Source: Escherichia coli
Lineage (GTDB): Bacteria > Pseudomonadota > Gammaproteobacteria > Enterobacterales > Enterobacteriaceae
NCBI RefSeq assembly: GCF_003334765.1
Contig: NZ_QOWT01000022.1
Length of the DNA: 64,000 bases
Reading direction: 5' to 3' (one strand)
The notes under the pieces were generated by a model. The model searched no databases. It was not told where the DNA came from and saw only the letters and a program-made list of their open reading frames with translations. The position numbers and the translations under genes are program-made. Below are positions 1,854 through 7,581 of this stretch, piece by piece. Every line of letters starts with the position of its first letter. The first letter of the stretch is position 1.

Positions 1854-2304
1854 GTTTCACCGTCCACATTTCTTCAGGTTCATCGGGTTCTGCTACCGCT
1901 TCAACGCTCGACACACTGCCGTCAGTGCTGACCAGCACACGTTCCGTCAGTTGCAGGTTAAGGCTGATATCACAGACATCGTTGCGCAGAATATCCACCT
2001 CAAAGGTAAATAGTTTTTCCCGTAACGCCGGGTTATTGATGGCATCGGGCTGGTTATCCCGCAGCCACAGCAAAACCGGGGCCATCAGCAGATTCTGGTC
2101 GCCGCTGAAATCCTCAATCACCACGTTCAGGGTGTAACCACGCAGCCCTACGAGTTCACTAAAGGCAGTATCTTTCACCTGATGGAGCCGGACCTGAACC
2201 AGGAAATTTACGGCCTGCCGGAATATCTGTCCGCCATTCCGTCCGCCTTGCTGAACGAGTCCGCTACGCTGTTCCGGCGTAAATACTACATCAATGGCAG
2301 TCAT
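1846..2304 (-). CDS. Phage tail completion protein R-like; N-terminal portion probably not native (antisense to portal-derived sequence)
   Basis: 152-aa ORF; its stop overlaps the S start by 8 nt; its first ~40 codons overlap the portal fragment on the other strand. Confidence 0.5.
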   Translation of the reverse strand: MTAIDVVFTPEQRSGLVQQGGRNGGQIFRQAVNFLVQVRLHQVKDTAFSELVGLRGYTLNVVIEDFSGDQNLLMAPVLLWLRDNQPDAINNPALREKLFTFEVDILRNDVCDISLNLQLTERVLVSTDGSVSSVEAVAEPDEPEEMWTVKRG

Positions 2305-2712
2305 GCAGGGTTCATCATGTATATGACCGACGCCGCGCAGAACCAGGAGGACGTGAACAACATCCGCCAGGCCATGAAAAGCGCTAAAGGACCGGGCAAC
2401 TTCCGCAACCTGTTTATGTATTCACCCAACGGCAAAAAGGACGGGATTCAGATAATCCCGCTGTCAGAGGTAGCGGCAAAGGATGAGTTTCTGAACATTA
2501 AGAACGTGAGCCGAGACGACATGATGGCTGCACACCGCGTTCCGCCGCAGATGATGGGGATTATGCCGAGTAATGTTGGGGGATTTGGGGATGTGGAAAA
2601 GGCGAGTAAGGTGTTTGTCCGTAACGAATTGATACCGCTGCAAAAGCGAATTAAAGAAATTAATGAATGGTTGAGTGATGAAATAATTTCTTTCCAACCA
2701 TATGAATTATAA
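2182..2712 (+). pseudogene. Phage portal protein (gpQ-like) C-terminal fragment; 5' boundary uncertain
   Basis: Translation contains RRKYYINGSHAGF and MMAAHRVPPQMMGIMPSNVGGFGDVEKASKVFVRNELIPLQ, which I recognise as portal C-terminal sequence; far too short for a complete portal. Confidence 0.6.
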
Positions 2713-2733
2713 TAAAGTAGGGCAAATAATGCC

Positions 2734-3591
2734 CTACTTTAACCAAATATTATAATCCAATCTTCCTACGTATCTTGAAAAAACAGCCAGAGCAATTGCT
2801 TGCCCTACACTTGTTAATTCAATTCCTTGATAGTTGCTCTTTGAAAATTTTTCTAAAAATGCAGACACATGAGGGGCAACTAACTTAAGATTTGAAATAT
2901 ATGCACTCTTATCTTTTATATCAGTCGGATATTTACTCATAAAATAGTCTTCAACATCCATCCCTAAAAAAGTATTCCATGAACAAGCCCCTGCATATTG
3001 AATGTGATATATCTGGGCTTGAGACAAATTAAACCCATTAGTATACATTGATTCAAAGTTTCTAAAATTGTGCTCCAACAAATCCAATCGAACACCATTA
3101 ACAGGGTCTTTGATCTCAACATTCTTGAGAAGAAAAACTATCGTTATAAGTGATATTTGTTGCTGTGTTAACTTGGGAACGACGGTAACTGCCTCCGTTA
3201 AAACTATATCTCTAAAATCGTCATTGTTATTGGAGACTCGTTCAACTAACAACTGAGAAAGCACATCCATATTAGCTTTCTTTCCCTTCCTGGCTGATGA
3301 CTTTAATGCCTCAGTCAATGTAGCCTGAACGTCCGGATCGCAAAATTTATCAATAATCAATCTATCAACGTTTTTTGTTAAATCCGAAACGACACGCTCT
3401 TCAAAATCTTTTGCATTCTCTTGAGCTGCAGCATAAGCAACATCTTTCAATTTTGGAAACTGATTTTCGAAGAGAATGTTGAATAGTTCTCTAACCTCGG
3501 AAAACGACATCCCTGAAACATTTACATTATTTCCAGCTTGAATTGCATACGAATTATTACCTATTTGTTGCTTTTGCTTATCACTAAACAT
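2734..3591 (-). CDS. Hypothetical protein (285 aa), AT-rich cargo; second gene of a two-gene module
   Basis: Start is preceded by GGAGGA directly after the stop of the upstream small membrane protein gene; no family recognised. Confidence 0.6.
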   Translation of the reverse strand: MFSDKQKQQIGNNSYAIQAGNNVNVSGMSFSEVRELFNILFENQFPKLKDVAYAAAQENAKDFEERVVSDLTKNVDRLIIDKFCDPDVQATLTEALKSSARKGKKANMDVLSQLLVERVSNNNDDFRDIVLTEAVTVVPKLTQQQISLITIVFLLKNVEIKDPVNGVRLDLLEHNFRNFESMYTNGFNLSQAQIYHIQYAGACSWNTFLGMDVEDYFMSKYPTDIKDKSAYISNLKLVAPHVSAFLEKFSKSNYQGIELTSVGQAIALAVFSRYVGRLDYNIWLK

Positions 3592-3600
3592 ATATCCTCC

Positions 3601-3846
3601 TTATTTTTTATCACCTGTATTTATACAATCAATTTTAATATCACCTCTAGCCTGGACAGCAGTTGAATTATCACCAACTGATTGGCTCATAGAATTATAT
3701 TTATTTTTTGTAGTGATAAGTAATCCAGCTAAAGCGCTAACTGCAGCCAAAAATGCAACAATAGAATCAAAACCAGGATCCATATAAAGCCATAATCCTG
3801 CAATCGATGCCAGCATACATGTAATGACTATTGCAAAAATTTTCAT
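3601..3846 (-). CDS. Small membrane protein (81 aa, two predicted TM helices); first gene of the two-gene cargo module
   Basis: ORF with AGGAG upstream; hydrophobic N-terminal two-thirds, polar C-terminal tail. Confidence 0.55.
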   Translation of the reverse strand: MKIFAIVITCMLASIAGLWLYMDPGFDSIVAFLAAVSALAGLLITTKNKYNSMSQSVGDNSTAVQARGDIKIDCINTGDKK

Positions 3847-3914
3847 AAATTCTCCTTCTAATGGAAGTGGTTATACCGAAAACAATTTCCTTTTACAACC
3901 ACGCACAGCGCGCG

Positions 3915-3940
3915 CTCGTATCCCCGCCACGCCTGCCCGC
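3915..3940 (-). other. Candidate cohesive-end (cos)-like sequence of the P2/186 type
   Basis: Minus strand reads GGCAGGCGTGGCGGGGATA; the GGCGTGGCGGGGA core matches the 186/P2 cos overhang as I recall it, and it sits in a GC-rich island between AT-rich cargo. Confidence 0.3.
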
Positions 3941-3983
3941 TTTGTGTAGTGGTTTTCATGCACCTGCATGACATAAGTAAAAG

Positions 3984-4001
3984 CCCGCCAGAACTGGCGG
4001 G
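3984..4001 (-). terminator. Hairpin plus T-run on the minus strand (possible relic phage terminator beside cos)
   Basis: cccgcca-gaac-tggcggg stem-loop followed on the minus strand by CTTTTACTT. Confidence 0.35.
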
Positions 4002-4151
4002 ACTGAGCAAAAACGATCCTTTTGCGATCATTCATTTTCATGCGCTATAGTCATGCAACAAACGCATACGAACCATATGGTTAGATTACTCATCAAGTCA
4101 GATGGATTTTCAGGCAGATTGCCACAGCAATTGTAAAGGAGCGAGATTGAA

Positions 4152-5153
4152 ATGGGTGGAGAGACTTCGGCTATACAACGAGTCGCGGGTAAGATTTCTG
4201 ATGATATTTTCTCAGTGTTCAAATGGGATCGTGCCGCTAGAGCGGACATGAATTGGGATTGTTGCCAAGAGGCTCATTCCAAGAAAACACATCCAAGCGA
4301 TGTTGTATTTTTCTACATAGATCCATATGAGGAGGAAATGGTCTATCTCAACACAGACCTCAAAAGCTATGCAGAAGGTACTATTGGGAAAAAAATAGTC
4401 GAGGGAGCTTTAACATCGCTTGCTTTAGCTACCGAGTGTGCAAATGTCAGTGAAGAATGGCGATTGAAATATGTTCATGATGATTCTTTAGGTTATAACG
4501 TAAGAGGGTTATTATTCTTATATAACCATGATAATTTATATGATAAAGACTTCTATGAGAATATTACAAAAAAATTAGATCACTCATCTATAAATTGCCC
4601 TCCAAACATCAAACTACATTTGCTTGACCCTTATAAAATATCAGATTTGATAAACATATCTTCTGACATAACTAAGTTAATTGGTTCAGGCAAACTTCCT
4701 CAACCTGATAAGTTCACATATTATTATCCAGATCTTTCCCTAACAAGAATAAAGCACCCTATTAATCAGACAACACCTGCAACAATTGAATTATTAACAT
4801 CACCATACATTATAATAAAGCATGAGGCTTTCAGTTGGCTCAGGGATAAAAACCCTGAGGGATATGTTGTTTATTACAATCAACCGGGGGATTCAGTAGA
4901 CGAATTCGTTTACTTCTTTGATATGTTATCAACTTATCAGATATTAACCGAAGGTAAACCAATCGTATTACGCCATTGTCACATTCACCCAAATGAAAAT
5001 GCCATTCATCATTTTGAAAGAGCGAAAAAGAAATACAGCACAGACTGGCTCTTAGGCGAGGATGAAAGACTTTTTCTTAAAATTGACTTCGACAAGACAG
5101 ACAAAATTGTTGTTGAATATAATCTTGAACAAATCGGCATGGAGCAACGATAA
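4152..5153 (+). CDS. Hypothetical protein (333 aa), gene 1 of a three-gene cargo cassette; possible PD-(D/E)xK-like motif
   Basis: AGGAG upstream; AT-rich; FFYIDPYEEEMVYLNTDLK resembles a hhhD...(D/E)xK nuclease core; no Walker A. Confidence 0.7.
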   Translation: MGGETSAIQRVAGKISDDIFSVFKWDRAARADMNWDCCQEAHSKKTHPSDVVFFYIDPYEEEMVYLNTDLKSYAEGTIGKKIVEGALTSLALATECANVSEEWRLKYVHDDSLGYNVRGLLFLYNHDNLYDKDFYENITKKLDHSSINCPPNIKLHLLDPYKISDLINISSDITKLIGSGKLPQPDKFTYYYPDLSLTRIKHPINQTTPATIELLTSPYIIIKHEAFSWLRDKNPEGYVVYYNQPGDSVDEFVYFFDMLSTYQILTEGKPIVLRHCHIHPNENAIHHFERAKKKYSTDWLLGEDERLFLKIDFDKTDKIVVEYNLEQIGMEQR

Positions 5154-6232
5154 TGGCTAAAAAACTATATTTCGCAACTGATAAAAATATTTATGATGCA
5201 TTACATCATAAAAGGATAACCGCTGCAAAGTTGCATGAATTATTGTTGAATCGAGGTGTGTTTTTATCACCAGAACTCGACAAGGAAATACTAATCGAGG
5301 AAATATCCAAACTTCCTCACGGATTTAATGAATTAGAACACATAAAAAAACTGGTCAAAACATATGACCCAAGGGAAAGCACTACTAGTGTGAGCTTCCA
5401 AACCTCAACAAATCAGGCCGAATTAAAAAGTGCTGCTGAAGCACTAAAAAAAACATGCTCCCCTAGTAAAGGTCAAAGCCTGAATATTGTAGCTAAAAAA
5501 GATGGCTCGCTTACAGTAGAATACAAATATGAAGAAATAGACCTGTCTAAAACTGCATTACGTCAGATCGACAAGCGGAATGTTATAATAGAACTTCGCC
5601 CTGGAGCTGACAAAGTTGAAGTACGTATGCCTCAAAACCCCGAGGCAAAAAAAGTTATTGAGAGCTTGCAAAACGAGCTATCTAAAATCAAGTCCGAACC
5701 TATCGAGCGCTTCGAAATATCATTACTAGCAATAACTGATCCTACATTGCGAAGTCAGTTTTTTCAGGAATTAATGAATGGTCTACGCGGTTATGAGACT
5801 GATGACGTAACAAAAGTCGAATTAAATCGCAGTACTGATGCTAGTGAGGATGAAGACAAGGAAGAAACTATTGATACCGGATTTGTTAAGAAAGCCGTCC
5901 TTAATGGTGAAGGGGTAAATAGTTCAGCTATATTTTCTCAACTACATGAGAAAGGTTATTATATCGGGCGTATTGCATGGTCTTCAAAGCCGACAAGTGG
6001 AATTGGAGACAGAATCAACGTCGAAGCATTTTTCAAAGACTCAGAAAAATGCTGTGACTTTGCCTATCAAATTAAAGGTATAAACAATCAAAAAGAAGAC
6101 GGTTTCAATGTAACCATTCGCGCGGCAACGGCACAAGAGAAAAAACATATTAGTGAATTAATTGAGTCCGCCGCTGAAAATGCCTATAATATAATAATAG
6201 GATCAGAGGTGAACGAAGATGAAAAAGGTTAA
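5153..6232 (+). CDS. Hypothetical protein (359 aa), gene 2 of the three-gene cassette
   Basis: ATG overlaps the gene 1 stop (TAATG at 5151-5155); GGAG 8 nt upstream; acidic patch SEDEDKEE; no recognisable family. Confidence 0.7.
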   Translation: MAKKLYFATDKNIYDALHHKRITAAKLHELLLNRGVFLSPELDKEILIEEISKLPHGFNELEHIKKLVKTYDPRESTTSVSFQTSTNQAELKSAAEALKKTCSPSKGQSLNIVAKKDGSLTVEYKYEEIDLSKTALRQIDKRNVIIELRPGADKVEVRMPQNPEAKKVIESLQNELSKIKSEPIERFEISLLAITDPTLRSQFFQELMNGLRGYETDDVTKVELNRSTDASEDEDKEETIDTGFVKKAVLNGEGVNSSAIFSQLHEKGYYIGRIAWSSKPTSGIGDRINVEAFFKDSEKCCDFAYQIKGINNQKEDGFNVTIRAATAQEKKHISELIESAAENAYNIIIGSEVNEDEKG

Positions 6233-6902
6233 ATGGCTTAAGTTAAACATACGGCTTGAGTTTGAAACAGCCGTTAGACGTCTTTCTCTTGATTCTTTTA
6301 CAGAGGATAAAGGGAAAGGGTTCATTTTTGATAAAATACGCCATGATTTTGCAAATGGTCGCTTTGTCGAGCGTATTGTTTATCATGATAAAATATTAAG
6401 CTTTGACGGAAGCGAAACTACCGTTGAAAGAATCGAATATCGCACCACAAATTTTAGCGTGGCTTTAGACTCTCTTCCTGTAATGCAGATTACTAACCCA
6501 CCCAGAACTTTAAAGCCTTTTTCGCAGGCTTTGGTAAAAAATCTTGGCTTAGGTGTTAGTTTGGAAGAAATTGACATAAACCCTATAGACTGGCTTAATG
6601 AAATATCTTCAAGTGTAAATATCAATTTAACACAACTTGATATTTCAAGGGTTAGAGTTTCTGATTACGCCACAGCTAAAATGCAAATAATTGGCAGCAA
6701 TGATCTTAGGAAGTATTATAAAGAAGAATTAGAGGGTAAAAAAATAAGAATTGACAGGCTTGTTTGCTCTGTTAATTCATTAGAATATTCCGGTAAGCTC
6801 AAGATCACCAATAGCGGCCTTGCTTATATTGATGTTAGAAATGAGAATGAGTTTACGAAAATCGTTTTTGATACGTTAAAAAAAGTCACCCTTCAATCAT
6901 AG
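6219..6902 (+). CDS. Hypothetical protein (227 aa), gene 3 of the three-gene cassette
   Basis: Start lies 14 nt inside the end of gene 2 (translational coupling); GAGGTG upstream; no recognisable family. Confidence 0.65.
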   Translation: MKKVKWLKLNIRLEFETAVRRLSLDSFTEDKGKGFIFDKIRHDFANGRFVERIVYHDKILSFDGSETTVERIEYRTTNFSVALDSLPVMQITNPPRTLKPFSQALVKNLGLGVSLEEIDINPIDWLNEISSSVNINLTQLDISRVRVSDYATAKMQIIGSNDLRKYYKEELEGKKIRIDRLVCSVNSLEYSGKLKITNSGLAYIDVRNENEFTKIVFDTLKKVTLQS

Positions 6903-6958
6903 ATGGCTTATAAGGAGTTACTTCACCTAACGCCTCGCCTTACTCGTTGTTCAACCTC

Positions 6959-6989
6959 GTAGGCGTCAGAATCAAGTTCTGACGCCTAC
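6959..6989. terminator. Perfect 13-bp inverted repeat hairpin between the cassette and the convergent DinI-like gene
   Basis: gtaggcgtcagaa-tcaag-ttctgacgcctac; no strong T-run on either side, so function as a terminator is uncertain. Confidence 0.35.
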
Positions 6990-6997
6990 AATGTTTC

Positions 6998-7231
6998 TTA
7001 ATGCAGCCAGCTATCGTCCTCCCAGACCTGCTGCATTATTTCCATCACTCGCTTTTTGTCTTCATCCAGTTTTAACCCGCTCAGCTCAACGCCATTGGCG
7101 CTGCCCTTACGGATACGAATTGCTGTTTTGGGATACAGAGGGCGCAAATTACGGTAAAGCTCGGATTCAAGGGCGTCCAGGGTAGACTGGCTAATCTTCT
7201 GCTCTTTATCGATCATTATTTCAATGCGCAT
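6998..7231 (-). CDS. DinI-like protein (77 aa from the MRIEIM start), resembling the C-terminal part of a 186 Tum-type module
   Basis: MRIEIMIDKEQKISQSTLDALESELYRNLRPLYPKTAIRI...VWEDDSWLH resembles DinI; the track ORF (7303 start) is probably over-extended. Confidence 0.6.
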   Translation of the reverse strand: MRIEIMIDKEQKISQSTLDALESELYRNLRPLYPKTAIRIRKGSANGVELSGLKLDEDKKRVMEIMQQVWEDDSWLH

Positions 7232-7241
7232 AAAAGCCACC

Positions 7242-7430
7242 TCAGCTGATGACATCCATTGAGCGGTTGTATTCGTGGGTTCTGATTTTTGCCATGAGTT
7301 CATCTGTCAGTTCAGAAACCCACTGCAGAGCCAGCCCCTTCTCTTCATCACTACACTCACTAGCCGCTACAAGCTTAAGAAAAAAATCAATGCGCTGGAG
7401 CTTCAAAGACTCCAAAAAATAGTCCTGCAT
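7242..7430 (-). CDS. Small protein (62 aa), first gene after the LexA-controlled promoter; possible Tum-like antirepressor part
   Basis: AGGAGG 4 nt upstream of the ATG; directly downstream of the LexA box; different frame and overlapping the DinI-like ORF. Confidence 0.4.
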   Translation of the reverse strand: MQDYFLESLKLQRIDFFLKLVAASECSDEEKGLALQWVSELTDELMAKIRTHEYNRSMDVIS

Positions 7431-7471
7431 CTTTCCTCCTATGACACCAAAGCAACACTGTATACATAACC

Positions 7472-7489
7472 ACTGTTTGTATTTACAGT
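7472..7489 (-). promoter_or_regulatory. LexA operator (SOS box) overlapping the -10 of a strong promoter for the Tum/DinI-like genes
   Basis: aCTGT-ttgtattt-ACAGta, a perfect CTGT-N8-ACAG; on the minus strand TTTACA (-35) and TATACT (-10) flank it. Confidence 0.7.
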
Positions 7490-7581
7490 ATATAATAATA
7501 TTACTGATGTAAAACGTTTTTTACGTTCATCAGCCTGATATGCCTGGTATTATTAAGAGCACGAATTGTTAACCTGCGTAA

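Follow-up and report, generated by a model that had tools for sequence, protein, structure and literature searches.

Two described anti-phage systems bear on the DNA analyzed here, a stretch of 64,000 nucleotides from Escherichia coli (contig NZ_QOWT01000022.1; hereafter the window), and on the first gene of a three-gene cassette that it carries. This gene 1 is the open reading frame (ORF) at 4152-5153 and encodes the protein Hp1. The first system is GAPS4 (Mahata et al. 2024; bioRxiv 10.1101/2025.09.07.674715). Its two proteins, GAPS4a and GAPS4b, are both needed for defence and assemble into a 2:2 heterotetramer. GAPS4a carries a divergent PD-(D/E)xK motif, HGxD...SxK, and defence is abolished by the substitution D59A in the system from Vibrio MAVP-R and by D49A in that from E. 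coli RiKo. Phage and host DNA are both degraded, without selectivity, and the system responds to DNA breaks such as those that follow nalidixic acid or a type VI secretion system DNase (bioRxiv 10.1101/2025.09.07.674715). The second system, 3HP, was described as a three-gene system from a P2 hotspot with no clear predicted domain. The cloned allele, which may differ from that of the window, protected against P1 only in a panel of eight phages (Rousset et al. 2022, Cell Host Microbe). A survey from 2024 still listed Rst_3HP among the systems without an assignable known domain family.

The cassette of the window (4152-6902) is the 3HP anti-phage system, Rst_3HP, located in the P2 hotspot that has the portal gene on one side and the DinI and replication genes on the other. 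All three PADLOC models are matched over their full length, with E values of 1.1e-239 for Hp1, 2.7e-248 for Hp2, and 2e-157 for Hp3. Supplementary file 6 of Rousset et al. (2022) assigns the same seven hotspot proteins to a single P2 hotspot, namely the cassette proteins WP_000508501, WP_001085272, and WP_000756244, their neighbours WP_000490525, WP_000687980, and WP_001154434, and the DinI protein WP_001217570. No difference in sequence from Rst_3HP was found, and the cassette lies between the portal and the DinI/replication genes here as there; what is added are fold assignments, which exceed those of the 2022 description and of the 2024 survey. RefSeq labels all three cassette proteins as hypothetical, and the UniRef name of the exact Hp1 sequence is 'GAPS4 PD-(D/E)XK nuclease domain-containing protein'. 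The cassette is thus already catalogued and gene 1 already labelled as a nuclease, and because both the system and the domain assignment stand in public resources, the finding itself is not novel. Modest new leads, absent from the literature searched, are the relation of a three-component system to GAPS4, an RdgC-like fold for Hp3, and a putative metal site.

Gene order was compared in 73 viral loci and several genomic loci. The order Hp1-Hp2-Hp3 is kept in about 70 loci. It holds wherever enough downstream sequence is present, down to about 32% identity in Hp1 and across a host range that extends to Pseudoalteromonas and Ralstonia. The portal gene, the three cassette genes, and the DinI-replication genes follow each other in the same arrangement in an intact relative (NZ_CP148585.1) and in Klebsiella phage ST437-OXA245phi4.1. 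The exceptions to the three-gene order are contig ends and a single locus on the viral contig L051 (6047-9079), where Hp2 is shortened to 336 amino acids and Hp3 lies 1.3 kb further downstream, an arrangement that suggests an insertion disrupting the operon.

An earlier note on this DNA, made by eye from the sequence, had proposed that gene 1 could be the effector, on account of either a PD-(D/E)xK nuclease core in the segment VVFFYIDPYEEEMVYLNTDLK or an Rx4H arrangement reminiscent of HEPN in LRHCHIHPNENAIHH. Both peptides are present in the ORF, at residues 51-71 and 273-287 of Hp1, respectively. Taken simply as patterns, the two motifs are no more frequent than chance would give: 34% of shuffled versions of Hp1 contain Rx4H and 72% contain Rx4-6H, and [DE]xK is under-represented, with 2 occurrences against 4.0 expected. 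The patterns by themselves carry no weight, so conservation and fold must decide. Homologues of Hp1 were collected by a word-indexed search (185 sequences) and by exhaustive phmmer (375 cluster representatives, E up to 0.001), and conservation was read from two alignments, one of 66 closer homologues and one of 143 representatives sharing at most 50% identity. In the larger alignment, to which the counts below refer, E4, W25, H47, D50, K71, S72, and C96 are invariant wherever the residue is present. D50 and K71 are found in 143 of 143 sequences, and D69 is an aspartate in 142 and a glutamate in one. Almost as well kept are C37, H42, P48, and N125 (140-142 of 143 sequences, P48 in 140). E4, H47, D50, D69, K71, and S72 are also invariant among the 66 closer homologues.

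Searches of annotation resources with Hp1 gave little. The local Pfam-A scan returned nothing even at an E value of 10, no NCBIfam model matched Hp1 or Hp3 at E up to 10, the PHROGs scan returned families of unknown function only, and profile searches against the sequences of the Protein Data Bank (PDB) gave nothing meaningful for Hp1, Hp2, or Hp3. An AlphaFold2 (AF2) model of Hp1 was built on the 66-sequence alignment, with a mean predicted local distance difference test score (pLDDT) of 89.6 and a predicted template modelling score (pTM) of 0.88. In this model, the N-terminal domain of about 130 residues is of the restriction-endonuclease-like PD-(D/E)xK type, with a predicted alpha-beta-beta-beta-alpha-beta core: alpha1 (residues 2-22, with E4), beta1 (26-36), beta2 (46-57, with D50), beta3 (62-73, with D69-L-K71), alpha2 (80-99), and beta4 (115-125), followed by N125-H126-D127. 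The best Foldseek match was the PD-(D/E)xK effector Hachiman HamA (E 5e-4). Structural and sequence elements typical of the superfamily are found: the core fold, a conserved aspartate on beta2, and a (D/E)xK motif on beta3. D50, D69, and K71, together with E4 on alpha1, are likely the metal-binding and catalytic residues.

The nuclease core proposed earlier is thus upheld in its fold and in the conserved D69-x-K71, and its first aspartate has to be reassigned. The earlier assignment placed the active site at D57 of the string FYID together with D69-x-K71, and the spacing of 12 residues between the two fits a loose PD...(D/E)xK pattern. The column of residue 57, however, is variable, with 93 D, 26 E, 10 H, and 7 N. 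The invariant aspartate is instead D50, in the string H47-P48-S49-D50 just upstream of VVFFYIDPYEEEMVYLNTDLK. The secondary structure assigned by DSSP to the AF2 model points the same way: strands 46-57 and 62-73 make up a hairpin, in whose register residue 50 would lie opposite residue 69, and residue 57 would sit at the tip, paired with about residue 62. D50 and D69-x-K71 would accordingly be cross-strand neighbours, like the metal-binding acidic pair of the superfamily. In addition, it is D50, not D57, that aligns with the essential D49 of RiKo GAPS4a. An active site built on D57 is therefore highly improbable, and D57 was rejected as a catalytic residue on the grounds of conservation and hairpin register.

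HEPN effectors are common in defence systems, and the string R-H-C-H-I-H is indeed present at residues 274-279 of Hp1, near the C-terminus, so that R274-x4-H279 could in principle mark an HEPN-type RNase. Conservation argues against this. R274 is an arginine in 100 and a lysine in 18 of the sequences, 113 of the 143 sequences have a gap in the I278 column and 116 in that of H279, and H275, H277, H286, and H287 are not conserved. In the model, moreover, the region belongs to a mixed alpha/beta domain and runs from a beta-strand, which holds R274, through a loop into a helix, and searches including Foldseek gave no match of Hp1 to an HEPN fold. With conservation, secondary structure, and fold all against it, the HEPN reading was rejected, and we assign it a negligible likelihood, the lowest of any explanation weighed here.

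The relation of Hp1 to GAPS4a was examined with the RiKo GAPS4a and GAPS4b sequences taken from the AlphaFold 3 (AF3) file of the GAPS4 authors, the GAPS4a sequence being confirmed by an exact match on public contigs. The Pfam family PF26115 (PDDEXK_GAPS4) is precomputed on all listed homologues of Hp1, including a 100%-identical representative, and on RiKo GAPS4a. Since the local copy of Pfam-A found nothing, the assignment of Hp1 itself to this family is based on the precomputed annotation together with hhalign, in which the Hp1 family profile matched RiKo GAPS4a with a probability of 95.2% (E 2.6e-8, 195 columns). BLASTP aligned residues 1-55 of Hp1 with residues 1-54 of GAPS4a (E 3e-7), placing KKTHPSD50 on KKTHGID49, so that D50 aligns with the experimentally essential D49. 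Further along, a match made by eye sets D69-L-K71-S-Y of Hp1 against S69-A-K71-Y-S of GAPS4a; Hp1 thus keeps the canonical acidic residue at a position where the characterized GAPS4a proteins have a serine. By these sequence comparisons, Hp1 is a distant homologue of GAPS4a, with which it has in common the PF26115 family, the N-terminal nuclease core, the essential aspartate, and a C-x4-H-x4-H...C set of residues.

The two systems also resemble each other in organization, for the nuclease gene comes first and overlaps its partner gene in both, and both are carried by P2-like prophages of E. coli. They differ in gene content and in location. RiKo-type GAPS4 consists strictly of two genes followed by the phage sheath gene, whereas 3HP always comes with the third gene, Hp3, and matches neither the two-gene nor the fused single-gene architecture of GAPS4. 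The experimentally studied RiKo GAPS4 is itself the cargo of a P2-like prophage (4001-6074 in loci L082-L084), and it occupies another P2 hotspot than 3HP, bounded by the tail-fibre-assembly and sheath genes. The two related nuclease systems are therefore carried by P2-like phages in distinct places. The homologue FASTA file of the GAPS4 authors contains at least 689 occurrences of THGID and, in the part examined, none of HPSDV, and their survey was thus apparently made without the 3HP clade. Together, these comparisons suggest that 3HP, with its constant set of three genes, is related to the two-gene GAPS4, a relation absent from the literature searched. Hachiman HamA and Shedu SduA, which are PD-(D/E)xK effectors responding to DNA ends or aberrant DNA, show no sequence homology to Hp1. 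The Hachiman partner HamB is a helicase, unrelated to Hp2 and Hp3.

The C-x4-H-x4-H...C set may represent a structural metal site. In Hp1, it comprises C37 (142 of 143, with one gap), H42 (141 of 143), H47, and C96 (143 of 143 each), whose counterparts in RiKo GAPS4a are C36, H41, H46, and C97. Arithmetic on the published coordinates of the RiKo GAPS4a AF3 model places C36 SG, H41 ND1, H46 NE2, and C97 SG at 3.1-3.9 A from each other, and in the AF3 model of the Vibrio GAPS4a the distance from C37 SG to H56 NE2 is 3.1 A. Such an arrangement would fit a tetrahedral metal site of the Cys2His2 type, albeit a putative one seen in predicted models. The D49 carboxylate lies about 13 A from H46 NE2 in the RiKo model, and we infer that C37, H42, H47, and C96 form a structural metal site beside the active site and outside it. 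Given this distance between the Cys-His-His-Cys cluster and the catalytic aspartate, the histidine in HGxD, as the motif was published, may be non-catalytic and bind a structural metal. The main text of bioRxiv 10.1101/2025.09.07.674715 mentions neither zinc, cysteine, nor metal.

The second cassette protein, Hp2, has a much weaker connection to GAPS4. The NCBIfam model GapS4b aligns with its residues 14-314 at E 2.2e-5, with a score of 23.5 bits, the cut-off being 300, and PF26110 (GAPS4b_N) is precomputed on a homologue 29% identical to Hp2. hhalign of Hp2 against RiKo GAPS4b gave a weak match (17% probability, E 1.4e-3), and BLASTP between the two found nothing significant. Hp2 might thus be a distant homologue of GAPS4b, the match being far weaker than that of Hp1 to GAPS4a. 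The third protein, Hp3, is predicted to have an RdgC/RexA-like DNA-binding fold. RdgC and RexA are non-specific DNA binders. Hp3 shows no sequence similarity to RdgC, lambda RexA, or Iml3-Chl4 (no PDB sequence match at E up to 10), and it is shorter than RdgC, with 227 residues against about 300. Local Pfam-A scans of Hp2 and Hp3 gave noise only, and neither protein has a recognizable catalytic domain or detected ATPase motifs. Conservation is also low, with five invariant columns in Hp2 and no invariant residue in Hp3. An origin of Hp3 by duplication of part of Hp2 was unsupported (hhalign of Hp2 against Hp3, 1.5% probability).

As a whole, the best explanation, and one that we consider quite probable, is that gene 1 encodes Hp1, the nuclease subunit of a 3HP system carried by P2-like prophages and working by a GAPS4-like mechanism. 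Hp1 is predicted to be the DNA-cutting subunit, with a metal-dependent nuclease activity, and in this respect the early proposal of gene 1 as the effector holds up as a nuclease reading, the effector role itself being a prediction by analogy. In the proposed mechanism, Hp1 would dock on Hp2 and be kept inactive until the DNA takes on an aberrant state as a result of infection. Once activated, it would act as a metal-dependent DNase, and degradation of the DNA would lead to death of the infected cell, that is, to abortive infection. Hp3, whose predicted fold is that of the ring-forming DNA binders RdgC and RexA, might supply or gate DNA recognition. A different possibility is that Hp1 does have a restriction-endonuclease-like domain, but one that targets RNA or works as a sensor binding nucleic acids, toxicity residing in Hp2 or Hp3. 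The full set of acidic residues and lysine is, however, invariant in Hp1, which argues for catalysis, and the homologous aspartate of GAPS4a is required for defence in a system that degrades DNA in vivo. Toxicity of the partners is further disfavoured by the features of Hp2 and Hp3 given above, and this possibility appears improbable, if less so than the D57 and HEPN readings.

Several points weigh against a GAPS4-like Hp1 nuclease. The motif is not the same: Hp1 has HPSD...DLK and GAPS4a has HGxD...SxK, the H, D, and K being kept and the G and S replaced. The two proteins are about 30% identical, in a BLASTP alignment that covers the first 55 residues only. 3HP protected only against P1 among the eight phages, whereas GAPS4 protects against many phages. 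The link from Hp2 to GAPS4b is weak. Because Hp3 has no invariant residue, its DNA binding is argued from the fold. The metal site is taken from other authors' AF3 models of homologues and not from a structure of Hp1, and biochemical work on 3HP was not found in the literature searched.

A more specific proposal, to which we give slightly less than an even chance, is that 3HP is a distinct offshoot of the GAPS4 family with three constant components. It would combine a canonical D...DxK nuclease (Hp1), a GAPS4b-like scaffold (Hp2), and an RdgC/RexA-fold protein that senses DNA or gates access to it (Hp3), and the histidine of the HGxD motif would be a structural metal ligand common to both families. 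The earlier observation was thus correct in part and already known. What the analysis brings is a concrete and testable mechanism for 3HP, which was unclassifiable as late as 2024, with D50, D69, and K71 rather than D57 named as the likely functional residues. It also ties 3HP to its only characterized relative, GAPS4, a DNA-break-triggered DNase, points to the RdgC-like fold of Hp3 as the feature that sets 3HP apart, and shows two related systems in two different P2-like prophage hotspots. Table 1 gives the coordinates of the features of gene 1 and of its surroundings.

Table 1. Positions in the window of the 3HP cassette, of predicted elements of Hp1, and of the surrounding prophage features.
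Feature	Position	Strand	Basis
Gene 1, Hp1, 333 amino acids, WP_000508501, predicted GAPS4a-like PD-(D/E)xK nuclease subunit	4152..5153	+	
Predicted nuclease core, residues 1-130	4152..4541	+	DSSP on the AF2 model and invariant residues
VVFFYIDPYEEEMVYLNTDLK, residues 51-71, beta2-beta3 hairpin	4302..4364	+	position in ORF and DSSP
LRHCHIHPNENAIHH, residues 273-287, end of beta-strand, loop, start of helix; no HEPN motif	4968..5012	+	DSSP: strand 271-275, helix 284-299
Predicted catalytic codons D50, D69, K71	4299-4301; 4356-4358; 4362-4364		
Putative structural metal site C37 (4260-4262), H42 (4275-4277), H47 (4290-4292), C96 (4437-4439)	4260..4439	+	
Gene 2, Hp2, 359 amino acids, WP_001085272, possible distant GAPS4b-like partner; start overlaps gene 1 stop	5153..6232	+	
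Gene 3, Hp3, 227 amino acids, WP_000756244, predicted RdgC/RexA/Iml3-fold protein; 14-nucleotide overlap with gene 2	6219..6902	+	
Promoter-like site TTGCGA-18-TATAGT upstream of gene 1	4022..4051	+	consensus scan alone, 9/12 matches, weak
Shine-Dalgarno sequence AAGGAG, 10 nucleotides before the ATG at 4152	4136..4141	+	direct sequence reading
Terminator-like hairpin with 14-bp stem, downstream of gene 3	6959..6989	+	pattern scan
P2-like prophage content: baseplate and tail genes, portal gene remnant, DNA adenine methylase, regulators	first 14 kb of window		
Replication endonuclease	7582-9996	-	
Integrase	13870-15102		

The three overlapping, co-oriented plus-strand ORFs, in the order Hp1-Hp2-Hp3, occupy an AT-rich region, the GC content of 4001-6000 being 0.37 against 0.41-0.53 in the flanking DNA. 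The start of gene 1 at 4152, which gives the protein of 333 amino acids, is supported by the Shine-Dalgarno sequence upstream and by the conservation of the N-terminus, including the invariant E4. Some public annotations use shorter starts. In the Hp1 orthologue of Klebsiella phage ST437-OXA245phi4.1 (NC_049448.1; 5244-6149 in locus L001), the annotated start lies 32 codons late, which gives 301 amino acids and removes helix alpha1 together with E4; deposited Hp1 forms of 232 and 319 amino acids also exist.

The first 14 kb of the window are the terminal part of a P2-like prophage. Compared with the 100%-identical intact relative NZ_CP148585.1, the prophage has an internal deletion of about 7.06 kb, with its junction at 2131-2138 and corresponding to 2139-9196 in locus L081; the flanks of the deletion overlap by 8 bp. 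The deletion takes the 5' end of tail gene R, the lysis, head-completion, terminase, capsid, and scaffold genes, and roughly the first 150 codons of the portal gene, which leaves the prophage defective, yet with an intact 3HP cassette.

Two further loci of the prophage carry additional genes. A second cargo pair, divergent from 3HP, lies in the same hotspot on the minus strand (2734-3846) and encodes a 285-amino-acid protein of the LPO_1073/Vpar_1526 family (NCBIfam, E 3e-72) and an 81-amino-acid protein that by eye appears membrane-spanning. PADLOC gave no match for either of these proteins, and both are found beside 3HP in the hotspot table of Rousset et al. (2022). The pair may be a further uncharacterized defence candidate. 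Finally, a 268-amino-acid hydrophobic protein, labelled DUF6216 in RefSeq and without a match in PADLOC, PHROGs, or NCBIfam, is encoded on the plus strand at 659-1465, between the baseplate V and virion morphogenesis genes of the opposite strand, and looks like a moron at a third site of the P2 backbone.
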